Origin: Flavobacteriaceae bacterium
GTDB lineage: Bacteria; Bacteroidota; Bacteroidia; Flavobacteriales; Flavobacteriaceae
Direction: 5' to 3'
Length of the DNA: 64,000 bases
Assembly: GCA_965662485.1 (NCBI GenBank)
Contig: CBFIIL010000003.1
Span: 1,144-65,143 of the forward strand
The notes below the pieces were generated by a model, which saw only the letters and a list, made by a program, of their open reading frames with translations, was not told where the DNA came from and did no database searches. The translations under genes and the position numbers were made by a program. Shown piece after piece: positions 16,400-35,787 of this stretch. Each line of letters begins with the position of its first letter. Positions within the stretch are counted from its first letter, which is position 1.

Positions 16400-17131
16400 T
16401 TAAGCAGTCTTTTTAACAGCTAAAGAGTAAATAACTAGTCCAAATCCAATCTTGTTGATTGCATCTGCAATGTTGTAAAGAACTTGCATGTCAAGCTCCA
16501 TTCCGAAGAATTGTCCTGCTGCTCCATACCATCCCTCAGTTCCAGCCATGTAACCTACTGGATAAATTGCCCATCCAACAAGTACAAACCAGCAAAGGAT
16601 TTTGTGAGCATGTAAAACATCTCCACCAGCTTCTTTAGCTAATTTTGCTGCTCCACCTAACCAGATTTCATAAACAATCACGAAATAAGCAATACCTGAA
16701 ATAGTACCCCAGATTACTGCGTCTCCTCCAGATTCTCCAATGTAACCAGTTACAAGCATAATAACAGATAATAAAATCATCTTGTTAAGTAATGTTTTTG
16801 TAGCACCAGCCACCTTAAGAATCAAATAGAATTCAACACACATTAATGGTACTGTAAGAATCCAATCTACATAACGGAATGCTGTAACATTTTCAAGTGC
16901 TCCAGCCATAGCCGCATCTCTCATGTACCAGTAATGAACTGCTGCAATGAAAGTAATTAAACCAGAAACTAAAACTGAAGATCTCCATTTTTTGTCAAAT
17001 TGGTTTAATGAAAGGAAAAAGAAGGCAGATGCTGCCATCATAGCCATACATCCAATAAAGAATGTGAAATTCACTGGGTCGTTAACGTTACCAGTAACGT
17101 CTGCAACAAGTGGTAAGAATAAATTTGTCAT
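16400..17131 (-). CDS. Proteorhodopsin, light-driven proton pump, green-absorbing type
   Basis: RYVDWILTVPLMCVE (D89, T93, M97, E100 = DTE with Met at tuning site), H66 in AVHYWYMR, DAINK with Schiff-base K227, seven TM helices. Confidence 0.96.
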   Translation of the reverse strand: MTNLFLPLVADVTGNVNDPVNFTFFIGCMAMMAASAFFFLSLNQFDKKWRSSVLVSGLITFIAAVHYWYMRDAAMAGALENVTAFRYVDWILTVPLMCVEFYLILKVAGATKTLLNKMILLSVIMLVTGYIGESGGDAVIWGTISGIAYFVIVYEIWLGGAAKLAKEAGGDVLHAHKILCWFVLVGWAIYPVGYMAGTEGWYGAAGQFFGMELDMQVLYNIADAINKIGFGLVIYSLAVKKTA

Positions 17132-17162
17132 TTTTCTAAAAATTTTGTTAGTTTTGTTTTAA

Positions 17163-17170
17163 CAAATGTA
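17163..17170 (-). promoter_or_regulatory. Bacteroidota -7 promoter element for proteorhodopsin
   Basis: TACATTTG on minus strand, ~30 nt before the ATG. Confidence 0.55.
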
Positions 17171-17241
17171 TCAATTTTTTAGACAAAAGTTTATCAAATG
17201 AATTTTTTTTTGCTCCAAAACTGATTATTTAACAAATATTT

Positions 17242-18135
17242 ATGAAAAAAAATTACAGATTCTCAATCGTGTTTAGCTTCCTTGGATTGTGGATTACTAC
17301 CTTATTTCCCGAAGATTTTGAACTTTTTTTAGGCTTTTTTCTCATTTTCACATTTGGGATGATACATGGTTCTAATGATATGTTGATTGTTAATAAACTA
17401 ACAAATCTTAAAAAAACGAGTTTTATCAAAACCCTCGCAACATATCTCCTCGTTGTCAGCATTGCGGTGTTAATTTTCTACTGGCTACCTAGTATTGCAT
17501 TAATCCTTTTTGTTTGTTTTAGCGCCTATCATTTTGGAGAACAGCACTGGGAAGAAAGTCTTGAATCAATTACGAATACATCGAAAAGACTTTATTTTTT
17601 CGCCTATGGTCTTTTTGTTTTATTTATGGTGTTTTATTTTAATGAAGCAAGTGTTAAAATGATTGTGAATGAAATCAGTGGGATGACATTAAATCAATTA
17701 TATACTGAACATGTATTAATAACACTTGGAGTTTTTATGCTAAGCTTTTTAGCTGTAATGTTGAGACAGAAAGAAATTAAGTTAAATACAGTTATAACAG
17801 AGCTGTTTACTCTTTTGGTGCTTGTTATAATATTCAAATCCTCTTCGCTCATATGGGGGTTCACCATTTATTTTATCATCTGGCACAGTATCCCATCATT
17901 ATTGGAGCAAATACGATTTGCATATGGTAGTTTAGACCGAAAAAATATTATAAATTATACAAAAGCTGCCCTTCCTTATTGGCTAGTTTCTTTGGTTGGA
18001 ATGACTTTACTTTATTTTGTTTTTAAGGACGAAAAACATTTTTATAGTTTGTTCTTTGCTTTTATTGCCGCTGTAACCTTTCCACATTCTATTGTAATGT
18101 TGAAAATGTTCACTAAAAAAAGTAAACATTTTTAA
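17242..18135 (+). CDS. blh: Brp/Blh beta-carotene 15,15'-dioxygenase (retinal synthesis)
   Basis: Four His motifs (GMIHGSND, AYHFGEQH, IWHSIPS, TFPHSIVM), multi-TM, adjacent to rhodopsin. Confidence 0.93.
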   Translation: MKKNYRFSIVFSFLGLWITTLFPEDFELFLGFFLIFTFGMIHGSNDMLIVNKLTNLKKTSFIKTLATYLLVVSIAVLIFYWLPSIALILFVCFSAYHFGEQHWEESLESITNTSKRLYFFAYGLFVLFMVFYFNEASVKMIVNEISGMTLNQLYTEHVLITLGVFMLSFLAVMLRQKEIKLNTVITELFTLLVLVIIFKSSSLIWGFTIYFIIWHSIPSLLEQIRFAYGSLDRKNIINYTKAALPYWLVSLVGMTLLYFVFKDEKHFYSLFFAFIAAVTFPHSIVMLKMFTKKSKHF

Positions 18136-23230: not shown

Positions 23231-24769
23231 TTAACCCAACCACCCCTCTCGATCTAAACTTCGGTACTGAATAGCTTCACTAATATGCATGCTTTCTATA
23301 GATTTTGAAGCTTCCAAATCGGCAATTGTACGTGCCACTTTTAAGATTCTATCATAGGCTCTAGCCGATAAATTTAAACGTTCCATAGCCTGCTTCAAAA
23401 GTGACTTTGAAACCTCATCCAAAACACAAAAATTCCGTATGTGTTTAGTTTGCATTTGAGCATTATAATGAACTGCACTCAAATTCTCAAAACGTTGAGT
23501 TTGCAATTGTCTTGCTTTTGTTACTCGTTCTCTAATGATTATGGAAGATTCGCCGCGACGTTCTTCAGTCAGTTTTTCAAATGGAACTGGCGTTACCTCC
23601 ACGTGAATATCAATACGATCTAATAACGGACCTGAAATTTTCCCCATATATCGTTGTATTTCAGCAGGAGACGAAGTTAATGGTGCTGATGGATCATTAA
23701 AAAAACCGCTTGGGCTTGGGTTCATACTAGCTACTAGCATAAAACTACTCGGATAAGTAACGGTAAACTTTGCTCTAGAAATCGTAACTTCCAAATCCTC
23801 CAATGGTTGGCGCATTACTTCTAGAACAGAACGTTTAAACTCCGGCAACTCGTCTAAAAACAACACCCCATTGTGTGCCATTGAAATTTCACCCAGCTGA
23901 GGGTACTGCCCCCCACCTACGAGAGCAACATCTGAAATGGTATGGTGTGGCGAACGAAATGGACGCTGAGTCATCAAACCTGATGGTGAACGCAATCGTC
24001 CAACAACAGAATGAATTTTGGTCGTTTCTAAAGCTTCTTGCAACGTCATTGGAGGTAAAATAGACGGTAATCGCTTGGCTAACATTGTTTTTCCGCTTCC
24101 TGGTGGCCCAATTAATATGATATTATGACCTCCAGCAGCGGCAATTTCCATACAACGCTTTATGCTTTCTTGACCCTTTACGTCTGCAAAATCAAATTCT
24201 GGTCTCAATAATGCGCTTTCAAATTCTTTATTTATATCAAAATGTGTTGGTCTTAGTGTTTTATTTTTATCAAAGAAGTTGATTACATCAATAATGTGCT
24301 TAACGCCATAAACCATCAGTCCTTGAACAATGGCAGCTTCTTTGGCATTTTCATCAGGGAGAATAAACCCCTTAAAACCTTCTTCCTTGGCCTTAATAGC
24401 AATTGGCAAAGCCCCTTTTATAGGCTGAAGACTGCCATCTAAAGATAATTCACCCATAATTACATAACGCTCCATTTCTTGAGCTTTAATTTGATTTGAA
24501 GCTGCAAGAATTCCCACTGCTAGGGTTAAATCATAAGCAGAGCCCTCTTTACGCATATCTGCTGGAGACATATTGATGATGATTTTTTTACCTGGAATCC
24601 TAAAGCCATTGTTTTCTAGTGCAGCTGCAATTCGAAAATTACTTTCTTTTATGGCATTATCAGGAAGACCTACAAGATGATAACCAATGCCATTATCAAC
24701 ATTGACTTCTACGGTGATGGTGTGGGCCTCTACACCAAAAACAGCGCTTCCATAAACTTTTTTTAACAT
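23231..24769 (-). CDS. comM: YifB/ComM Mg-chelatase-like AAA+ ATPase
   Basis: VGLPD, GPPGSGKTM, PFRSPHH, LFLDELPEF, SGPLLDRID, LSARAYDR. Confidence 0.9.
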   Translation of the reverse strand: MLKKVYGSAVFGVEAHTITVEVNVDNGIGYHLVGLPDNAIKESNFRIAAALENNGFRIPGKKIIINMSPADMRKEGSAYDLTLAVGILAASNQIKAQEMERYVIMGELSLDGSLQPIKGALPIAIKAKEEGFKGFILPDENAKEAAIVQGLMVYGVKHIIDVINFFDKNKTLRPTHFDINKEFESALLRPEFDFADVKGQESIKRCMEIAAAGGHNIILIGPPGSGKTMLAKRLPSILPPMTLQEALETTKIHSVVGRLRSPSGLMTQRPFRSPHHTISDVALVGGGQYPQLGEISMAHNGVLFLDELPEFKRSVLEVMRQPLEDLEVTISRAKFTVTYPSSFMLVASMNPSPSGFFNDPSAPLTSSPAEIQRYMGKISGPLLDRIDIHVEVTPVPFEKLTEERRGESSIIIRERVTKARQLQTQRFENLSAVHYNAQMQTKHIRNFCVLDEVSKSLLKQAMERLNLSARAYDRILKVARTIADLEASKSIESMHISEAIQYRSLDREGWLG

Positions 24770-24826
24770 ATGATAGATTTGAGTATTTAAAAATATGAAA
24801 AATAATCAAACTGTTATTTGATTTTT

Positions 24827-24883
24827 AAAATGTTAATGTTTGTTTAATTATTGATAATAAACTTTGAACAAGCTTTATTTTTG
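24827..24883 (+). promoter_or_regulatory. Promoter with conserved upstream box (copy 1)
   Basis: AAAATGTTAATGTTTGTTTAATT at 24827-24849 and TATTTTTG -7 element at 24876-24883; same layout at 30479-30535. Confidence 0.65.
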
Positions 24884-24900
24884 TAGAAATCAATTTAACA

Positions 24901-25557
24901 ATGGCTAAAAAAACTAAACTTACTAAACAAAGACTTATTGAATTATTTATGGACAATGTTTTGGAACACAATGAAACTCCAAAAAGCGTCTATGCATTTG
25001 CAAAAATGAATCATTTTGAAGAATCCGAATTTTATAGCTTTTTTGGTTCATTTCAAGCTCTTGAATCTTCAATATTTGAAACTTTTTTCGACAATACGAT
25101 AAAAACCCTTAAAAAAAGTAAAGACTACAAAAATTACGACGCTCAAAATAAATTATTGAGCTTTTATTTTACTTTTTTTGGAAATCTTACTGCTAATCGT
25201 AGCTATGTTGTCCATGCTTTGGAAACTTCAATTGGAGGGCTTAATACCCTAAAAAAACTCAAACCACTACGAAAAAAGTTTCTTGAATTTGTCGATGAAT
25301 TAGAACTTGTTGATTTTGAAATAAAAAATAAACGCATTGATGATATTAAAGATAATGTGGTGAATGAATCCTATTGGATTCAGGCACTTGTAACACTAAA
25401 ATTTTGGTTAGATGATGACTCTACAGATTTTGAAAAGACTGATCTTTTTATTGAAAAATCTATTGCAGCAAGTTTCGAATTAGCACACACCAAACCTCTA
25501 AAGAGCGTTGTAGATTTTGGAAAGTTTTTGTTTAAAGAAAAAATGGGGGCTAATTAA
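24901..25557 (+). CDS. TetR-fold protein with degenerate HTH; COQ9-like C-terminal motif
   Basis: HTH-like KSVYAFAKMNHFEESEFYSFFGS; C-terminal FWLDDDSTDFEKTDLFIEKSI. Confidence 0.7.
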   Translation: MAKKTKLTKQRLIELFMDNVLEHNETPKSVYAFAKMNHFEESEFYSFFGSFQALESSIFETFFDNTIKTLKKSKDYKNYDAQNKLLSFYFTFFGNLTANRSYVVHALETSIGGLNTLKKLKPLRKKFLEFVDELELVDFEIKNKRIDDIKDNVVNESYWIQALVTLKFWLDDDSTDFEKTDLFIEKSIAASFELAHTKPLKSVVDFGKFLFKEKMGAN

Positions 25558-26870
25558 TGAAATCAATAGACCGAATCCCAACATCAAAATTACAACGTGC
25601 CTCAAAAATTGTTTCAACAGGAGCAAAAGTTGGAGTTAATTATATTAAGTATTACGGAGAAAGATTGAGTAAATCTGAAGAAATTGCAAAAGACAATTTA
25701 AATAAAAATAATGCTGACGATATTTACAGTGGACTAAAACAGCTAAAAGGAAGTGCTTTAAAAGTTGCACAAATGCTCAGCATGGAAAAAAATATTTTAC
25801 CACAAGCTTATGTTGAGAAATTCTCTTTGGCTCAATTTTCCGTTCCGCCTCTATCCTCTCCTCTGGTTGTCAAAACATTCAAAAAATATTTTGGCAAAGC
25901 ACCTGATGTTATTTTTGATGAATTTGATGCTAATTCTGTTAACGCAGCTAGCATTGGCCAGGTTCATCGTGCCAAAAAAAATGGAAAAGATTTGGCAGTT
26001 AAAATTCAATATCCTGGTGTTGCAGACAGCATAAAATCTGATTTATCCTTGGTAAAGCCAATTGCAATTAAAATGTTTAACATTAAAGGAAAAGATTCGG
26101 ACAAATATTTCAAAGAAGTTGAAGATAAATTAACTGAAGAAACCGATTATTCTTTAGAAATTAAACAAAGTCAAGAAATTGCAAAGGCCTGTGCGCACAT
26201 TCCTAATATTCTGTTTCCAACATATTACAAAGAATATTCATCAAACAGAATATTGACGATGGATTATATGCAGGGTCAACATTTATCGGAGTTTGCGAAA
26301 CACAACACAGACCAAGAAAATGCGAATAGATTAGGTCAAGCGTTGTGGGATTTTTATATGCATCAAATTCATAACCTTAAAAAGGTACACGCAGACCCGC
26401 ATCCTGGCAATTTTTTAATTAATGACAACATACAACTAATCGCTCTTGATTTTGGATGCATGAAAGTAATTCCAGATGAATTTTATTTACCATACTTTGA
26501 ATTGGCTAATCCAAATATTATCAATAATCCTCGCTTGTTCTCTGAAAAATTATACGAATTAGAAATTCTTACTCCCAATGATACCAAAGACGAAACCACG
26601 TTTTTTACAGCGATGTTTCATGAGTTATTAAGTGTATTTACACTTCCATTTCAACAAGATGGTTTTGATTTTTCAGATCCAGAATTTTTTGGGAAAATTG
26701 GCGATTTGGCAGAGCGCTACAGTAAAAATACAGAATTAAGGAAGTTCAATAGCAACAGAGGATCAAAACATTTTATTTATATGAACAGAACATTTTTTGG
26801 ATTGTACAATTTAATGTTTGATTTAAAATCCAATGCTGTAAAAATTAATCAATTTCAACATTACAAATGA
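25557..26870 (+). CDS. ABC1/UbiB/COQ8-family atypical kinase
   Basis: ALKVAQMLS (KxGQ-like), AASIGQVH, AVKIQYPGVA, EETDY, HADPHPGNF, DFG. Confidence 0.92.
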   Translation: MKSIDRIPTSKLQRASKIVSTGAKVGVNYIKYYGERLSKSEEIAKDNLNKNNADDIYSGLKQLKGSALKVAQMLSMEKNILPQAYVEKFSLAQFSVPPLSSPLVVKTFKKYFGKAPDVIFDEFDANSVNAASIGQVHRAKKNGKDLAVKIQYPGVADSIKSDLSLVKPIAIKMFNIKGKDSDKYFKEVEDKLTEETDYSLEIKQSQEIAKACAHIPNILFPTYYKEYSSNRILTMDYMQGQHLSEFAKHNTDQENANRLGQALWDFYMHQIHNLKKVHADPHPGNFLINDNIQLIALDFGCMKVIPDEFYLPYFELANPNIINNPRLFSEKLYELEILTPNDTKDETTFFTAMFHELLSVFTLPFQQDGFDFSDPEFFGKIGDLAERYSKNTELRKFNSNRGSKHFIYMNRTFFGLYNLMFDLKSNAVKINQFQHYK

Positions 26871-27502
26871 TACACCTAAAACGTCAAGATTTTGAAGAAT
26901 TAGATAATATATTTAGAATAAATCTGATAAATAGTTGCTCCGGATTTAAATCAGCAAACCTTATTGGAACAAAGTCAAATTTAGGAATTCCAAATGTGGC
27001 TGTTTTTAGTTCAGTAACTCATTTGGGTTCCAATCCACCTTTACTTGGTGTTATATTTAGGCCTGTAACTGATGTTCCACGAAATACTTATGAAAACATC
27101 AAAGAAACAGGGCAATTTACAATTAATCATATTGACGCTTCTATCATAAAAGACGCTCATCACACTTCTGCTAAGTACGATAAGGACGTTTCAGAATTTG
27201 ATATAACTAATCTAGAGGAAGAATATAAAAATGGTTGGCATGCTCCTTTTGTAAAAAATGCACCCATTCAAATTGCACTTACCTACTGCGAGGAATACGA
27301 AATAAAGGCCAATGGTACTATTCAACTCATAGGAGAAATTAAAGATTTATTTATAAAATCTGATCTTCTTGAAAATGATGGTTTTATTAATTTATCTAAA
27401 GCTAATATTATAGCGATCAATGGATTAGATGGATATACCGTACCAACACTTAAAGAGCGAATGAGTTATCAAAGGCCAAAAAAAATAGTAAAAACGAAAT
27501 AA
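26867..27502 (+). CDS. Flavin reductase-like (split-barrel) protein
   Basis: [36 protein letters not shown]. Confidence 0.85.
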
Positions 27503-27509
27503 CAACTGG

Positions 27510-27647
27510 TTGAAAAAATCTGAGTTACCATCAAAAATCTGTGTTGTGTGTCAACGTCCATTTTCGTGGCGCAAGAAATGGGAACGTGACTGGGAGTTTG
27601 TAAAATATTGTAGTAAAAAATGCAGCAACAACAAGACACATCGCTAA
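27510..27647 (+). CDS. DUF2256-like Cys4 small protein, 45 aa (not in ORF track)
   Basis: TTG start; [45 protein letters not shown]; overlaps the DASH gene start. Confidence 0.85.
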
Positions 27648-28927
27648 TTTGGTTTAGAAATGATTTAAGGACACAAGACAATACTGTTTTGTTGTCGGCT
27701 CTATCAACTTCTAAACAGGTTATAGGAGTGTATTTTTTAGAGCCTAATCAGTTTAAAATAAATAAATATGGGTTCAAAAAAATGGAGAAGTATAGAGTTA
27801 AATTTCTTCTTGAAACTTTAAATTGTCTTCAACAAGAGCTTCACAAATTAAATATCACACTTTTAGTGTATCAAGATTCTGCAAAAGAGCAAATGAAGCA
27901 TATTGTGGAAACTTATAATGTTAGTACTATTTATTTACAAAAGGAATGGACTGATGAAGAAAATACTTCGTTTAATGATGTAAAGGATAGTCTTAACGAA
28001 ACAGTTATTTTTCATGACATTTATGATCAATTTTTATTTCATCCAGAGGATGTTCCATTTCACTTTAAGGATACGCCAAAGGTATTTACACAGTTCAGAA
28101 AAACATTAGAGAAAAAAGCAATAGTTAGAAACTTAATAAAAATTCAGCCACAGAGTGCAACATACTTGTTGAAAACTACAACTAAAATTCCCACTTTGAG
28201 AGACTTAGGCTACGAAGATTTTGAAGTAGACAAACGATCTGTTTTTCCATTTCTTGGTGGAGAAAATGCAGCATTCCAGCGGTTGGAACATTACTTCTTT
28301 GAAACTAAATCACTTGGTGTTTATAAAAAAACAAGAAATGGGCTTTTAGGGCTCAACTACAGTTCAAAGTTTTCTCCTTGGCTTGCAAATGGAAGCATCT
28401 CAGCGAGACAAATTTATTGGAACGTTAAAGAATTTGAAAGTCAATTTTTCTCTAACCAGTCGACCTATTGGTTGATATTTGAATTGATTTGGCGTGATTT
28501 CTTTAAGTATGTATCCCTTAAGCATGCTAATGAAATTTTCAAAATAGATGGCATTCTAAAACAACAATATCAATGGTCGGACCATCAAAAATATGTCGAT
28601 GAATGGATTCATGGCGAAACTTCAGACGATTTTGTAAACGCCAACATGTTAGAACTTAAAAATACGGGCTGGATGAGCAACCGAGGTCGGCAAAACGTAG
28701 CTTCATTTTTTGCGAAAACACAAAAACTAGACTGGCGAATTGGCGCTGCTTATTTTGAGTCAATGTTAATCGATTATGATGTACATAGCAATTATGGGAA
28801 TTGGATGTATGTATCAGGGGTTGGAAATGACCCTAGAGATCGTGTCTTTAATGTAAAACTTCAAGCCGAACGCTATGATTCAAATAAGAAATATAGGAAA
28901 CAATGGCTACAATCTAAACTCTTTTAA
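27620..28927 (+). CDS. Cryptochrome DASH
   Basis: [58 protein letters not shown]. Confidence 0.93.
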
Positions 28928-30460
28928 ATGAAAACATTACGACTCATTTTAGGCGATCAATTAAATCCACATCACTCTTGGTATAACCACATAGACGACA
29001 ATGTTTTATACTGTATGTTTGAAATGCGGCAGGAGACTGACTATGTGAGGCATCATATTCAAAAAGTAATTGGCTTTTTTTCAGCTATGCGAGAATTTGC
29101 CAGCCTGTTGGAGCAAAAGAGTCATAATGTCATTTATTTTAATATTGTAGATGTTGAAAATCAACATGATTTAGAAAAAAATATAAAACTTTTAATTGAA
29201 CAAAACGCTGTAGAGAATTTTGAATATCAAGCACCAGATGAGTACCGTTTGGAAGAACAATTAAAATCAATATGTAATGATTTGTCAATTAGCAGCTCAA
29301 GTTGTGATACAGAGCATTTTTTAACTACAAGAAACGAGCTTACTGATTTTTTTGAAGGAAAAAAACAACTCCTAATGGAGCGTTTTTATCGTAATATGCG
29401 AAAAAAACATCATATTTTAATGGTGGGGGAACAGCCTGAAGGTGGCGTTTGGAATTATGACCATAACAACAGAAAAAAATGGAAAGGAAGTCCAGAAATA
29501 CCTAATTACAAGGCCTTCAAAAACGATGTAAAACAAATTTGCAAGGATATTTCATCGAGCAAATTAGATACTATTGGGCTTTTTGAAGGCGATTATTTTG
29601 AATATCCCATAAACTTAAAACAAGCTCAAGAACAGTTAGCCTACTTTTGCAAATTCCTGCTCCCTCATTTTGGAGACTATCAAGATGCGCTACACAACGA
29701 AGAAGTCTATCTTTTTCACTCGCGTTTGTCTTTTGCGATGAATACAAAAATTATCAGCTCAAAGGAAATAATTGAGGCTGTTATGACACATTATCGCCAA
29801 CACATGGATAATATTGATATTGCACAAGTTGAAGGCTTTATTCGTCAAGTTATTGGTTGGCGGGAGTATATGCGTGGCATGTATTGGAAAGAAATGCCAT
29901 CTTACAAAACATTAAATGAGTTAGAAAATCATGAGGATATTCCTGAGTTCTTTTGGACAGGAAATACTAAAATGAATTGTCTTCAAAAAACTATCAAAAA
30001 CTCTTTGGAACATGCCTATGCACATCACATCCAGCGATTGATGATTACTGGAAATTATTTGTTGCTAACACAAACGCATCCAGATGCTGTAGATGATTGG
30101 TATTTGGGAATTTACATAGATGCCATTCAATGGGTGCAATTGCCAAATACACGAGGGATGAGTCAGTATGCCGATGGTGGTAAGATAGCGACAAAACCTT
30201 ATGTTTCATCTGGCAGCTATATCAATAAAATGAGCAACTATTGTAGTTCCTGCCACTACAAGGTGAAAGAAAAAATAGGCCCTAATGCATGCCCATTTAA
30301 TAGTTTGTATTGGAATTTTTTGGATGATAAAAAAACAAAACTCTACAACAATCAACGCATGCGAATGATGTATTCTGTTTTAAATAAATTTTCAGCAGAT
30401 GATTTACATGAAATGAAACTTCGTGCAGCTGAAATTATTGCACATCCAGAGCAATTTTAA
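28928..30460 (+). CDS. FeS bacterial cryptochrome/(6-4) photolyase (CryB/PhrB-like)
   Basis: LILGDQL, HIQK, YAHHIQRLM, four cluster Cys (MNCL, YCSSCHY, ACPFN), TKPYVSSGSYI. Confidence 0.92.
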   Translation: MKTLRLILGDQLNPHHSWYNHIDDNVLYCMFEMRQETDYVRHHIQKVIGFFSAMREFASLLEQKSHNVIYFNIVDVENQHDLEKNIKLLIEQNAVENFEYQAPDEYRLEEQLKSICNDLSISSSSCDTEHFLTTRNELTDFFEGKKQLLMERFYRNMRKKHHILMVGEQPEGGVWNYDHNNRKKWKGSPEIPNYKAFKNDVKQICKDISSSKLDTIGLFEGDYFEYPINLKQAQEQLAYFCKFLLPHFGDYQDALHNEEVYLFHSRLSFAMNTKIISSKEIIEAVMTHYRQHMDNIDIAQVEGFIRQVIGWREYMRGMYWKEMPSYKTLNELENHEDIPEFFWTGNTKMNCLQKTIKNSLEHAYAHHIQRLMITGNYLLLTQTHPDAVDDWYLGIYIDAIQWVQLPNTRGMSQYADGGKIATKPYVSSGSYINKMSNYCSSCHYKVKEKIGPNACPFNSLYWNFLDDKKTKLYNNQRMRMMYSVLNKFSADDLHEMKLRAAEIIAHPEQF

Positions 30461-30478
30461 TCTGTTAAAGAAAAACTA

Positions 30479-30545
30479 AAAATGTTAATATTTGTTTAAT
30501 TGTAACAACTCATTGTGCAACATTGTTTATGTTTGAAATAAACAA
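30479..30545 (+). promoter_or_regulatory. Promoter with conserved upstream box (copy 2) and overlapping palindrome
   Basis: AAAATGTTAATATTTGTTTAATT at 30479-30501; TATGTTTG at 30528-30535; TTGTTTAT-N7-ATAAACAA at 30523-30545. Confidence 0.65.
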
Positions 30546-30556
30546 ATTCGATTACT

Positions 30557-30985
30557 TTGGTTTTAGATACAACACATTACGATAAAGAACATAAATTACT
30601 GATCAATGAATTTGTTGGTGAATCTTACAGCTTCTGGCAAGCCCTCAAGCGTGGAGGCATTGGCTCAAAACGAATGATTGTAGACAAGCTAAGCCCAAAC
30701 CTAAACTATATTTCAAATATCACATCCGATATAAATTATGCCAATATTGAGATAAGAAAAAAAGGAATCTTAATCCATATCACCAAAGGGCTTAAAAACT
30801 TTACCTGGGCCATACCATTTTATCAACTAGTTTTTTACAAAACAAACTTTACAAGTATTCATGCACAAGGGAAATTTATTCACTTTAGAAATTCAAAAAC
30901 TTTTAAAGAGAATAAATCTTTTTTTAGAAACTTGATGAATGAAAAGATAAATTTTGATCAACAGTACATTTTGCCTCAACTATGA
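30557..30985 (+). CDS. Hypothetical protein
   Basis: 142-aa ORF with TTG start, first gene after promoter copy 2, overlaps next gene. Confidence 0.7.
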   Translation: MVLDTTHYDKEHKLLINEFVGESYSFWQALKRGGIGSKRMIVDKLSPNLNYISNITSDINYANIEIRKKGILIHITKGLKNFTWAIPFYQLVFYKTNFTSIHAQGKFIHFRNSKTFKENKSFFRNLMNEKINFDQQYILPQL

Positions 30986-31254
30986 AACTCACAGCTGTTG
31001 AAATAGATAGAATAATTGAAATGGCGTGGGAAGACCGCACCACTTTTGATGCAATAAAATTCCAATTTGGGCTTTCAGAACAACAGGTTATTGAACTGAT
31101 GCGAAATCAAATGAAACCGAAAAGTTTCAGACATTGGCGCGCTAGAGTTCAAGGACGAAAAACAAAACATCAAAAATTGCGTGAATTTGAATCTGGTCGA
31201 TTTAAATGCACTAGACAACGAGCAATTTCCAATAACAAAATTTCAAAACGCTAA
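30982..31254 (+). CDS. TIGR03643/DUF2805 family protein
   Basis: RIIEMAWEDRTTFDAIKFQFGLSE...SFRHWRARVQGRKTKH. Confidence 0.85.
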   Translation: MKLTAVEIDRIIEMAWEDRTTFDAIKFQFGLSEQQVIELMRNQMKPKSFRHWRARVQGRKTKHQKLREFESGRFKCTRQRAISNNKISKR

Positions 31255-31262
31255 AAATTAAT

Positions 31263-31940
31263 ATGGATATAAAAAAAACAAATCATCTAAATGGAATTTC
31301 TCATTACGAAATTGGTGATGATCACCTCTACACTGGACTAGAAACTCCAATAAAAAAAGATGCTTTTCTGTTAAGTGACGAAGAAAAAAAGAAAAAAATT
31401 TCAATCCTTTTTGAGGAGATTATGAATGTTATTGGCTTAGATTTAGAAGATGATTCTTTGAAAGGAACTCCTGATCGTGTTGCTAAAATGTACATTGATG
31501 AAATCTTTTCTGGGTTAAACCCAAAAAATAAGCCTCAGATAGCTTTGTTTGATAACAAATATCAATACAATCAGATGTTGGTTGAGAAAAATATTACATT
31601 CTACTCTAACTGTGAACATCATTTTGTTCCCATAATAGGTAAAGCACATGTTGCTTACATTTCTTCTGGGAAAGTCATTGGATTATCTAAGCTAAACAGA
31701 ATAGTACAATTTTTTGCAAAACGTCCGCAAGTCCAAGAACGCTTAACTAATCAAATTGGTGAGGAATTGAAAAACATACTGGGAACCAATGATGTTGCAG
31801 TTATTATTGACGCCAAGCATCTCTGCGTTTCATCCAGAGGAATAAAAGACGAAACGTCATCAACAGTCACTGCCTTTTACAGTGGTGCATTTACCAACTC
31901 AGCAAAAATTGCAGAGCTCAATAATTATATAAATTCATAA
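31263..31940 (+). CDS. folE: GTP cyclohydrolase I
   Basis: TPDRVAKMY, SNCEHHFVP, GLSKLNR, RPQVQERLT, HLCVSSRG. Confidence 0.96.
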   Translation: MDIKKTNHLNGISHYEIGDDHLYTGLETPIKKDAFLLSDEEKKKKISILFEEIMNVIGLDLEDDSLKGTPDRVAKMYIDEIFSGLNPKNKPQIALFDNKYQYNQMLVEKNITFYSNCEHHFVPIIGKAHVAYISSGKVIGLSKLNRIVQFFAKRPQVQERLTNQIGEELKNILGTNDVAVIIDAKHLCVSSRGIKDETSSTVTAFYSGAFTNSAKIAELNNYINS

Positions 31941-31941
31941 T

Positions 31942-32166
31942 ATGAGTACAGTTCAAAAAGGAGAAGAATTTTTAAACAAAAGTTTGAAATTTAAAAATAC
32001 AAGCGAAAGAATTGAAGCCTCAAGAGAAGTAAAGGCTTTAATTCTAGGGATTAATGAAATTTACAAATCAAACAAGGATCCAAAATTGATGGATTTGATG
32101 AAAGACTTAACCCTAGTTAAACAAAAAATTGAAAAACGCTTAAAAGGAAGGCCTTTAACATCATGA
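31942..32166 (+). CDS. Small helical hypothetical protein
   Basis: 74-aa ORF tightly packed between folE and SDR gene. Confidence 0.65.
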   Translation: MSTVQKGEEFLNKSLKFKNTSERIEASREVKALILGINEIYKSNKDPKLMDLMKDLTLVKQKIEKRLKGRPLTS

Positions 32167-32846
32167 AAACAATCATTATTGTCGGTGGAAGTCGAGGGAT
32201 TGGTAGAGCAACTATTGAAGCGCTTTTGCCTAATTATAAGTTAATTAACATCAGTAGAAACGCACCAGATTTTGAACATGCAAATTTAACACATTACAAC
32301 TGTGATGTGATTTCAGACGATCTGCCAAATATTGAGAGTGCTGATGGTCTTATATATTGCCCTGGGAGCATAAACTTAAAGCCGTTCAAAAGATTAAGTT
32401 TAGAAGATTTTAGAAACGACTTTGAGATTAATGTTATTGGTGCAATAAAAAGTATTCAGGCCTATTCTCCTGCTCTTATAAAATCTGAATCTGGTTCAAT
32501 TGTGCTTTTTAGTACAGTAGCGACTGCAATGGGCATGCCTTTTCATGCAAGCGTTTCTACTGCAAAATCTGCTGTGGAAGGGCTTATGAAGTCTATTGCA
32601 GCAGACCTTGCTCCAAAAGTAAGGGTTAATGCTATTGCGCCAACAATCACACAAACAGATTTGGCTGCAAAATTGCTACGCAATGAACGTATGGTAGAAA
32701 ATACAATACAAAGACATCCCTTAAAAAAATTCTTGGAACCCGGCGAAGTTGCATCAATGGTTGAGTATTTAATTTCAGATGTATCAAAATCAATTTCAGG
32801 CCAAGTTTTTAAATTGGATTGTGGAATTGTATCCTTAAAAATTTAG
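32163..32846 (+). CDS. Short-chain dehydrogenase/reductase
   Basis: GGSRGIG Rossmann motif, VRVNAIAP; His in place of the usual catalytic Tyr (FHASVSTAK). Confidence 0.88.
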   Translation: MKTIIIVGGSRGIGRATIEALLPNYKLINISRNAPDFEHANLTHYNCDVISDDLPNIESADGLIYCPGSINLKPFKRLSLEDFRNDFEINVIGAIKSIQAYSPALIKSESGSIVLFSTVATAMGMPFHASVSTAKSAVEGLMKSIAADLAPKVRVNAIAPTITQTDLAAKLLRNERMVENTIQRHPLKKFLEPGEVASMVEYLISDVSKSISGQVFKLDCGIVSLKI

Positions 32847-32847
32847 T

Positions 32848-33390
32848 ATGAAGATTATAAAGCTATTAACAATTTTTTTATTCAGTATAAATCTAGCGAA
32901 AGCGCAATACAACAAAAAAATGAGTATTTACGATATTAATATTAATGCCTTAGATGGTACACAGGTAGACTTAAAAACATTTCAAGGAAAACATATTTTG
33001 TTTGTAAATGTTGCGTCTGAATGTGGTTTTACAAATCAATACGAAGGACTTCAAAAACTATATGATACCTATAAAGATGATTTGATGGTTATTGGTGTTC
33101 CTTGTAATCAATTTGGACAACAAGAACCTGGAAATTCAGAACAAATTCAATCGTTTTGTCAAAAAAATTATGGGGTCACTTTCTTGATGACTGAAAAAGT
33201 AAATGTAAAAGGAAAAGATAAGCATCCATTGTACGAATGGCTTACAAACAAAGACTTAAATGGAAAGAACAGTACCACAGTAAAATGGAATTTCCAAAAG
33301 TATGTTATTGGTCGAAACGGTGAATACATTGATTATTTTTATTCGATGACAAAACCAATGAGTAGTAAGATCACAAAATTAATTCAATAA
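32848..33390 (+). CDS. Glutathione peroxidase-family (Cys) peroxidase
   Basis: VNVASECGFT, PCNQFGQQEPG, KWNFQKY. Confidence 0.93.
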   Translation: MKIIKLLTIFLFSINLAKAQYNKKMSIYDININALDGTQVDLKTFQGKHILFVNVASECGFTNQYEGLQKLYDTYKDDLMVIGVPCNQFGQQEPGNSEQIQSFCQKNYGVTFLMTEKVNVKGKDKHPLYEWLTNKDLNGKNSTTVKWNFQKYVIGRNGEYIDYFYSMTKPMSSKITKLIQ

Positions 33391-33392
33391 AA

Positions 33393-33560
33393 ATGTTTGG
33401 ATTATTTAAAAGAAAAACTGAAACTGAAAAACTGCAAATTCGCTACAAAAAATTAATGGCAGAATGGCATAACCTATCATCAATAGACCGTGCAGCTAGT
33501 GATGAAAAATATGCTGAGGCACAGGAGGTTTTAACTCAAATTGAAAAATTAGAACAATAA
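33393..33560 (+). CDS. Small protein, Lacal_2735-like, 55 aa (not in ORF track)
   Basis: MFGLFKRKTETEKLQIRYKKLMAEWHNLSSIDRAASDEKYAEAQEVLTQIEKLEQ*; fills the gap, stop overlaps the tspO ATG. Confidence 0.82.
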   Translation: MFGLFKRKTETEKLQIRYKKLMAEWHNLSSIDRAASDEKYAEAQEVLTQIEKLEQ

Positions 33561-34021
33561 TGAAATTTACATCAACATTAATACTGTTTTTGGTTCTTAA
33601 TTTTGGAGCATTATGGATAGGCACAGTGTTGATGAATGATGGTCCACAATCTTTATGGTACACATCTCTAAATCAAGCACCGTGGACTCCAATGGGATGG
33701 GTGTTTGGAGCAGCTTGGACATGTGTCATGATTTTCTTTTCTGTATTCATGACTTTTCTTGTTCAAAATGAAAACCTAAAAAAAGTATCCTTATTGTTTG
33801 CCATACAATTTGTATTGAATGTTTCATGGAATTACGTTTTTTTTAATCAACACCTTACAGGTCTTGGGATTCTGATAATCATTCTTTTAACCATACTTAC
33901 ATTTTATTTCTTAATTGCATTCAAATCTACATTAAACAACAATCGTTTCTTTGTTCTACCCTATTGTTTATGGCTTCTCTTGGCCACATCTCTTAACGCT
34001 TATATTGTGATTTATAACTAG
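33560..34021 (+). CDS. tspO: TspO/MBR tryptophan-rich sensory protein
   Basis: WYTSLNQAPWTPMGWVFGAAW, LNVSWNYVFF, PYCLWLLLATSLN. Confidence 0.9.
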   Translation: MKFTSTLILFLVLNFGALWIGTVLMNDGPQSLWYTSLNQAPWTPMGWVFGAAWTCVMIFFSVFMTFLVQNENLKKVSLLFAIQFVLNVSWNYVFFNQHLTGLGILIIILLTILTFYFLIAFKSTLNNNRFFVLPYCLWLLLATSLNAYIVIYN

Positions 34022-34489
34022 ATGAAAATATATACACTACACACAAAACAGAATCTTCCGATTTCTGTAGATGAAGCTTGGCAGTTTTTGTCCAGTCCAG
34101 AAAATTTAAAAACTATAACACCAGATTATATGGGGTTCCATATTCTGTCTGGAGCTGATCGCGAAATGTTTCCTGGGCAAATCATCCAATACATTGTTAC
34201 ACCAGTTTTAGGAATAAAAACTAAATGGGTAACTGAAATAACACATGTTAAAAACAAAGCATACTTTGTAGACGAACAACGTTTTGGACCATACGCCTTG
34301 TGGCATCATAAACATTTTATTCGCCCTATTGAGGGTGGCGTTGAAATGGAAGATATTGTGGATTACAAGCTCCCATTTGGACTACTTGGCAGACTAGCGC
34401 ATCCTATTTTAGTAAAACCAAAATTGAAAGAAATTTTTGATTATCGTCACAAGAAACTTATTGAACTTTTTGGTCCGTATAAGTCATGA
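34022..34489 (+). CDS. SRPBCC (START/Bet v1-like) lipid-binding protein
   Basis: FLSSPENLKTITP, WVTEIT, FVDEQRFGPYALWHHKH, IFDYR. Confidence 0.87.
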   Translation: MKIYTLHTKQNLPISVDEAWQFLSSPENLKTITPDYMGFHILSGADREMFPGQIIQYIVTPVLGIKTKWVTEITHVKNKAYFVDEQRFGPYALWHHKHFIRPIEGGVEMEDIVDYKLPFGLLGRLAHPILVKPKLKEIFDYRHKKLIELFGPYKS

Positions 34490-35787
34490 ATCCAACAGCA
34501 CTATTTTGGTTTAGAAGAGATCTACGCTTACATGATCAACATGGGTTGTATAAGGCCCTAAAAAACCACAAAAGCGTACTTCTCATTTTTATTTTTGATC
34601 CTGAAATTCTTGACAATTTACCTGAAGATGACGCTAGAGTTGATTTTATTTATAATCAGATAAAAACACTCAACAATGCACTAGAAAAATACAATACTGC
34701 AATTCACACGTATTATGGAAAACCTTTGGATGTTTTTCAAAAATTGACCAAAGAGAACAACATTCAAGCCGTGTATGCCAACCATGATTATGAACCCTAT
34801 GCTCTCCAAAGAGACCAAAAAGTTGTTGACTTTCTTAAGGGGCATAAAATTGAATTCAAGACCTACAAAGACCAAGTAATTTTTGAAAAAAATGAGGTAA
34901 AAAAAGACGATGGCCTGCCCTACAAAGTATACACCCCCTACTCAAAAAAATGGTTGAATTTATTTAAAGAAGAATACGTTTCACCATACTGTAGTGAAAC
35001 ACTTTTAGAGCATTGCACAAAAATTGAAACTCCAAAATGGGTTGAAATGAACGTAATGGGTTTTGTACCTTCAAAAGTTAAAATCACTCCCTATACTATA
35101 GACAATAAGCTGATTGATTTATATGAAGAACAACGAAACACACCCTCAGTGGCAGGAACTTCAAGACTTGGACCACATCTACGCTTTGGAACTGTAAGTG
35201 TACGGGAAATCGTTTTAAAAGCAAGAAAAAGAGAAAATATCACTTTCCTAAAAGAACTCATTTGGCGAGAGTTTTTTATGCAAATACTATGGCATTTTCC
35301 ACATACGGTATCCAAAAGTTTTAAGCCACAATATGATGCTATACAGTGGAGAAATAACCAAGAAGAATTTGAAAAATGGTGTGCAGGCAGAACGGGTTAT
35401 CCTCTTGTAGACGCTGGCATACGAGAATTAAATGAAACAGGATTTATGCATAACAGAGTGCGAATGCTTGTAGGAAGTTTTTTATGTAAGCATTTACTGA
35501 TAGATTGGCGATGGGGAGAGGCCTACTTTGCCCAAAAACTTCATGATTTTGAATTATCAAGTAATGTAAGTAATTGGCAATGGGTAGCTGGTTGTGGTGT
35601 AGATGCTGCTCCATATTTTAGAATATTTAATCCCACAACACAAATTACAAAATTTGACAAAGAGCATAAATATATCAAAAAGTGGGTGCCTGAATATCAG
35701 AAATTTGATTACCCCTCTCCTATTGTAGACCATAAATTTGCCAGAGAAAGATGCTTGAAAACCTATAAAAAAGCTTTGAATAAATAG
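34486..35787 (+). CDS. phrB: Deoxyribodipyrimidine (CPD) photolyase
   Basis: WFRRDLRLHD, TSRLGPHLRFG, ELIWREF, TGYPLVDAG, MHNRVRM, DAAPYFRIFNP. Confidence 0.93.
   Translation: MNPTALFWFRRDLRLHDQHGLYKALKNHKSVLLIFIFDPEILDNLPEDDARVDFIYNQIKTLNNALEKYNTAIHTYYGKPLDVFQKLTKENNIQAVYANHDYEPYALQRDQKVVDFLKGHKIEFKTYKDQVIFEKNEVKKDDGLPYKVYTPYSKKWLNLFKEEYVSPYCSETLLEHCTKIETPKWVEMNVMGFVPSKVKITPYTIDNKLIDLYEEQRNTPSVAGTSRLGPHLRFGTVSVREIVLKARKRENITFLKELIWREFFMQILWHFPHTVSKSFKPQYDAIQWRNNQEEFEKWCAGRTGYPLVDAGIRELNETGFMHNRVRMLVGSFLCKHLLIDWRWGEAYFAQKLHDFELSSNVSNWQWVAGCGVDAAPYFRIFNPTTQITKFDKEHKYIKKWVPEYQKFDYPSPIVDHKFARERCLKTYKKALNK

Follow-up and report, generated by a model that had tools for sequence, protein, structure and literature searches.

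For class I CarH regulators, the operators described in the available parts of PMC8156234 and PMC9304148 consist of three or four tandem 11-bp direct repeats; the first of these sources gives TnnACA as the core of the half-site and names the motifs Wx9EH and ExHxxG as those that define CarH. The class II LitR proteins PplR1 and PmlR2 of Pseudomonas recognize the operator T(G/A)TACA-N12-TGTA(C/T)A, command a regulon that includes photolyase, cryptochrome-like and folE genes and do not bind B12, the regulator of P. mendocina acting via a light-oxygen-voltage (LOV) partner (PMC9758184, available in part). Marine flavobacteria are documented to induce genes for proteorhodopsin, carotenoids and photolyase in the light, and neither a sensor nor an operator was found named for it in the literature searched, which was mostly without subscription papers. 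The subject of this work is a stretch of 64,000 nucleotides from a Flavobacteriaceae bacterium (assembly GCA_965662485.1, contig CBFIIL010000003.1, positions 1,144 to 65,143), referred to in full as the window, in which two promoters of a photolyase cluster, at sites A and B, carry versions of the 30-bp inverted repeat TGTTTAA-N16-TTAAACA. This palindrome is very probably a real regulatory element, the operator variant being new and the system known. Judged from sequence, there is an equally strong case that it is the operator of a flavobacterial CarH/LitR, a predicted B12-binding repressor of the MerR type encoded beside crtI. No description of a palindromic operator of this kind was found in the same literature, and no such motif appears in the available parts of PMC5932025, PMC5613140, PMC7064467 and PMC9723704.

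The original prediction started from two near-identical boxes on the forward strand, box A at 24827-24849 and box B at 30479-30501, and these indeed agree at 22 of 23 bases, with one difference. Each holds TGTT twice, 10 nt apart, as a recount confirms, and consists of a TGTTAA element (24831-24836 in box A, 30483-30488 in box B) followed by the left half-site of the operator. The AACA announced at equal offset in both promoters is present and is the end of the second half-site. The boxes are therefore real but were drawn too short, since they hold only the operator's left half. Operator A occupies 24840-24871 as TTGTTTAAT-N14-TTTGAACAA, with halves at 24840-24848 and 24863-24871, and operator B occupies 30492-30523 as TTGTTTAAT-N14-GTGCAACAT, with a degenerate right half; scored with the matrix described below they give 17.2 and 15.2 bits, the two highest palindrome scores of the window. 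Four nucleotides after the end of each palindrome comes a Bacteroidota sigmaA -7 element on the forward strand, TATTTTTG at 24876-24883 and TATGTTTG at 30528-30535, both of the predicted form TAnnTTTG and 49 nt from the box start, with putative start sites near 24888 and 30540. As the Bacteroidota -7 element spans positions -12 to -5 (PMC9723704, available part), the half-sites would lie at about -48 to -40 and -25 to -17 from these start sites, which is a repressor position. By eye, no TTG at a fixed distance around -33 was seen in column counts of the orthologous site-A promoters. The 23-nt box was discarded as a genome-wide motif in favour of the palindrome, neither copy having a third relative at three or fewer mismatches in the 1.75-Mb, 172-contig assembly. 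A reading as an 11-bp direct repeat was also rejected, the repeat not being conserved among orthologues.

Footprinting of site A used the 30 best of 78 matches to the tetR gene that follows it in 121 Flavobacteriaceae genomes. The results showed the 30-bp inverted repeat in 28 of the 30 promoters, 22 times without mismatch; other spacers always cost at least two mismatches. The two misses are a promoter with only a weaker match far upstream (L012) and one with no match (L020). From 26 of these orthologues, leaving out the window's own genus and L012, a symmetrised position weight matrix (PWM) was built; scores of site-A orthologues are circular with this matrix, those at site B, crtI and proteorhodopsin are not. 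At site B, taking the best 30 of 81 genomes with a match to the 142-aa gene downstream, 29 of 30 promoters reached at least 14 bits, with 12.0 for the best control spacer. The conservation upstream of orthologues that the original prediction had called for is thus present at both sites. In 23 of the family's 30 best litR loci the crtI promoter scored at least 14 bits, and in 27 the left half-site stood exactly 23 nt before the litR start codon; only this half was counted at litR because the right half overlaps the start codon. At proteorhodopsin, 14 of the 25 scorable loci (27 in total) reached 12 bits or more, whereas the most successful of six control spacers did so in 2 of 25; 11 of the 14 sites lie 46-56 nt before the start. 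The TAnnTTTR element kept its offset in 21 of 26 site-A and 24 of 27 site-B orthologues. TAAACA, which contains the TnnACA core, forms near-invariant columns on each strand, the cores lying at offset 0 (minus) and 24 (plus), and no conserved core was seen at 11 nt to either side of the half-sites in the site-A and site-B orthologues. In the genome to which the window belongs (G000), 15 sites of at least 14 bits were found versus 1-8 for nine other spacers, and the two window sites rank 8th and 12th. Near-duplicate contig pairs occur in this assembly (C78/C99, C33/C56, C9/C67 and C17/C13), consistent with its 3.75% contamination, and its site counts may be slightly inflated as a result.

The palindrome travels with the litR gene. 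Over the 121 genomes, the exact pattern gave 474 matches versus 64 for the reversed pattern. Not one of the 99 litR-positive genomes is without a site (mean 4.68 versus 0.53 for the control), while 16 of the 22 litR-negative genomes are (mean 0.50 versus 0.55); three genomes with weak helix-turn-helix (HTH) matches only were called negative, and one fragmentary and one frameshifted gene were called positive. A PF02607 search for a hidden CarH in five of the 22 litR-negative genomes returned an open frame of 891-916 aa, the size of methionine synthase, in four and nothing in one. In a phylum sample of 250 genomes, the site was present in 25 of 33 litR-positive versus 50 of 200 litR-negative genomes outside the family, and it lay beside the gene at 26 of the 29 litR loci of the sample (controls 0-4 of 29), often before a gene for an extracytoplasmic function (ECF) sigma factor. 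Such co-occurrence does not show binding and cannot name the protein that binds. Together with the footprinting, it supports the proposal that one factor serves both promoters. As to the further suggestion of phased repeats like those of CarH/LitR operators, the family resemblance is supported in the same way, whereas the conserved operator is an inverted repeat and not a set of phased direct repeats.

The regulator was said to be missing from the window, and so it is, but the genome encodes one elsewhere: on another contig, directly before crtI, lies a gene for a 299-aa protein with MerR and B12-binding_2 domains (C21:4863-5762). Both the MerR-type HTH (PF13411, MerR_1) and B12-binding_2 are found in 47 of 47 homologues, among which W143, E153, H193 and G271 do not vary and conservation of H154 and E191 is 90% or more; the G000 protein retains Wx9EH and has ExHxxG in the form ETHDLG. 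Its best match in the PDB, by sequence and by predicted fold, is the CarH of Thermus thermophilus, the model having a predicted local distance difference test (pLDDT) score of 89.6 and the structures 5c8d, 5c8e and 5c8f being the closest by fold. Since a cobalamin adenosyltransferase and a methylmalonyl-CoA mutase are encoded in the genome, adenosylcobalamin (AdoCbl) is probably made from imported B12. In the contig around the gene (C21:4863-9340, L079), carH/litR and crtI precede genes that resemble crtB, crtZ and crtY, an assignment made by eye on the N-termini. Applied to the window, the known mechanism of the family, from which the repression and photolysis steps are taken, would operate as follows. 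In the dark, AdoCbl-loaded CarH would bind both TnnACA half-sites and block RNA polymerase carrying sigmaA; in the light, the cobalt-carbon bond would be cleaved, the repressor released and both photolyase/cryptochrome operons turned on.

Several observations weigh against the assignment of the palindrome to CarH/LitR. Class I CarH, in the available descriptions, has tandem direct repeats, whereas here the two TnnACA cores are on different strands, with 24 bp from one to the other and no conserved core in between; for M. xanthus CarA, inverted repeats are dispensable (PMC9304148, available part). The Rossmann-fold family PF02310 matches 8 of the 47 homologues, and the G000 regulator is not among them. 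The p-values for co-occurrence are overstated because the genomes are kin. Several strong palindromes of G000 also precede genes with no clear link to light, such as the one upstream of a type IX secretion system (T9SS)-type protein and the one that separates a TonB receptor gene from a two-component propeller gene (L063:2712 and L064:979; C32 and C137). Within the genus the system looks eroded: the G000 copies score 0.5 bits at crtI, below 0 at litR and 9.0 at proteorhodopsin and are degenerate across the genus, litR is frameshifted in the same-genus genome G067 (L103, C2:19613-20511), site B is weak even together with litR (median 10.2 bits), and its key G is missing in the litR-bearing G370, G376 and G384. 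At the litR-crtI cluster, both the autoregulatory and the crtI sites are degenerate in G000 and in eight close relatives. The same split litR with the same promoter occurs in a record labelled Aeromicrobium sp. (L238), which looks flavobacterial by this locus; it came from a contig scan that gave 16 loci, none of them from Dokdonia.

This erosion bears on a different account of the two promoters, in which the functional element of the genus is the 23-nt box, a direct repeat read by a second factor, either an activator or RNA polymerase itself via an UP-like element, and the CarH palindrome is a decaying relic. The box pattern TGTTAA-N4-T(G/T/A)TTTA, drawn after inspection of the data, is kept within the genus in all 20 regions at site B and in 16 of the 17 that were fetched for site A, while spacer and right half vary, and it survives in metagenome-assembled genomes (MAGs) of the genus without a litR match, in which the palindrome scores lower (medians of 6.5 bits at site A and 1.1 at site B). 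TGTTAA is moreover enriched 44-48 nt before -7 elements, in 9 of 351 G000 promoters with 1.8 expected, which include those of icd-, sucC- and glutamine synthetase-like genes (judged by N-termini); leaving out a duplicate and the two window promoters reduces this count to six (P=0.011). In other genomes, TGTTAA has this position in 6 of 167 promoters that lack the palindrome, with 1.3 expected (P=0.002). However, the MAGs without a litR match are only 63-87% complete, so that absence of litR from them is not established; site A still scores 12-21 bits (median 17.2) in the litR-bearing members of the genus; and family-wide TGTTAA, an optional element at -10 from the palindrome, is present in only 5 of 26 orthologues at site A and 13 of 27 at site B, against palindrome halves that are near-invariant. 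A second factor reading the box as the functional element is hence unlikely, though it can coexist with a CarH operator. In both window promoters TGTTAA lies 45 nt before the -7 element, at about -57 to -52. Its occurrence in palindrome-free promoters and the near-invariance of the box in the genus point to two overlapping signals as the likely cause of the near-identity of the boxes, an operator half-site and a general promoter-upstream element. The 5' TGTTAA is likely to be this separate element, overlapping the operator and persisting where the palindrome decays, and probably has a role independent of the repressor.

The remaining rivals keep the palindrome but change its reader, or deny it any function. 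It might be bound by another regulator co-inherited with CarH/LitR, for example an adjacent ECF sigma factor: co-occurrence cannot discriminate here, the ECF sigma gene that follows litR in other families carries the site, and the best site of G000 precedes such a gene. However, a symmetric dyad that keeps a constant distance to a sigmaA -7 element is unlike a sigma-factor promoter, in most Flavobacteriaceae loci it is crtI that directly follows litR, the site covers the litR start, and the half-site is the TnnACA core of the CarH family, all of which leave this explanation quite improbable. Even less credence is due to the TetR-family protein, first gene of operon 1, as an autoregulator acting through the palindrome. 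Regulators of the TetR type often bind palindromes in front of the gene that encodes them, and a TetR_C_23 gene does start 30 nt downstream of site A. The site nevertheless does not track the tetR gene: all 23 litR-positive genomes without a tetR match have sites (mean 3.0), G079 has tetR but neither a litR match nor sites, and no palindrome is present in front of tetR in G079, G111 or G018, which largely refutes this candidate. In G111 and G018 (L163, L164) the tetR-ABC1 pair stands apart from the photolyase cluster, and a word like GTAA-TTTATAGGA is common to the two promoters. Chance similarity in AT-rich DNA, or neutral duplication of a promoter, was considered as well, the genome having 34% GC. 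When 1,523 upstream regions (about 1.16 million pairs) were dinucleotide-resampled in 20 replicates, 1-9 pairs per replicate shared a 23-mer at no more than one mismatch, about 3e-6 per pair, so that such a match is possible somewhere in the genome but unlikely between two promoters of one cluster. Footprinting refutes this last explanation, to which we give almost no weight: at both sites the half-sites stay fixed over dozens of genera and the spacer between them varies.

The operator assigned to CarH/LitR is found before a wider set of genes. In 60 regions, taken mostly around the matches listed, 65 sites of at least 15 bits were found, one of them flagged inside a gene, with both operons, crtI, litR, fasciclins, GLPGLI proteins and proteorhodopsin/blh as recurrent targets. 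Among relatives (L109-L168) these targets include fasciclins (8 of 30 scanned proteins), GLPGLI/Porph_ging proteins (3) and GHMP kinases (2 loci), together with CIA30, YceI, UbiA, a desaturase-family protein and DUF2867; several fasciclin promoters have two palindromes 40-44 nt apart. The top palindrome of G000 (23.3 bits; L062:1761, C59:2260) is the one that precedes an ECF sigma factor. In Dokdonia MED134, proteorhodopsin, crtBI, a MerR regulator, a photolyase, the cryptochrome-DASH operon and an adhesion-domain lipoprotein are light-induced (bioRxiv 10.1101/2023.12.25.573297, available part), and the palindrome targets resemble this set in a comparison of gene lists alone.

Both operons of the cluster are on the forward strand. 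Operon 1 (24901-30460) comprises genes for the TetR_C_23 protein, an ABC1 kinase, a flavin reductase, DUF2256, a cryptochrome DASH and a photolyase-related protein (DPRP). Operon 2 (30557-35787) encodes a 142-aa protein of unknown function, DUF2805/TIGR03643, folE, a 74-aa unknown, a short-chain dehydrogenase/reductase (SDR), a glutathione peroxidase, Lacal_2735, TspO, an SRPBCC-like protein and a photolyase. The statement that the cluster has only two sizeable intergenic gaps is correct, for a third apparent gap, 27503-27619, is filled by the 43-aa DUF2256 gene (27510-27641, TTG start), which overlaps the start of cryptochrome DASH. About 7 kb upstream of the cluster, proteorhodopsin and blh are divergent genes at 16400-18135, with a degenerate palindrome copy between them (17155-17186, 9.0 bits); in several genus members the palindrome at this place has a 17-nt spacer (15.6 bits at spacer +1). 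Metatranscriptome contigs from 4 of 23 listed runs cover the cluster, leaving 24300-24781 uncovered, and the first listed pieces begin at 24907-24925; as they carry no information on starts, strand or level they were excluded from the evidence. One contig (X4) spans site B, so that read-through from operon 1 is possible.

A broader proposal, for and against which the weight is about even, is that the CarH of Bacteroidota binds DNA in a mode that differs from every CarH complex solved so far, on an inverted repeat whose cores are separated by 24 bp; that a single regulon would join proteorhodopsin, retinal and carotenoid synthesis and photolyases, making the light induction of phototrophy B12-dependent; and that the genus, a streamlined one, is losing this switch one gene at a time, with the litR, crtI and proteorhodopsin sites decayed while the separate, previously undescribed TGTTAA element persists. 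If true, phototrophy would be linked to B12 availability. A defined 30-bp site with a named candidate protein makes the question of the light sensor testable, and site plus regulator would predict which strains are light-inducible and which constitutive. An inverted-repeat operator would also add to the DNA-binding modes known for CarH, a protein in optogenetic use. The result is less surprising in that both the family of regulators and its biology are already familiar.

Set against the known systems in the available accounts, the flavobacterial regulator shares with class I CarH/LitR of Thermus thermophilus, Bacillus megaterium and the Myxococcales the MerR HTH, the four-helix cap, the Rossmann fold, Wx9EH and ExHxxG, and its site shares the TnnACA core with class I operators, which overlap the promoters of carotenoid and photoprotection genes, as the flavobacterial site would if transcription starts where predicted here. 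The three or more tandem 11-bp direct repeats of a canonical CarH operator are not found at the flavobacterial site. With class II LitR, again as the available source describes it, the likeness lies in a site of two hexamers and in photolyase, cryptochrome-like and folE targets; the hexamers are separated by 12 nt there and by 18 nt here (TGTTTA-N18-TAAACA), the sequence TGTACA-N12-TGTACA does not occur at the flavobacterial site, and class II LitR does not bind B12, whereas the flavobacterial regulator retains the AdoCbl motifs. The LitR-LitS system of Streptomyces reportedly pairs LitR with an ECF sigma factor. An ECF sigma gene beside litR or under its control is common to both, but here the site stands in the target promoters themselves, which have sigmaA -7 elements.

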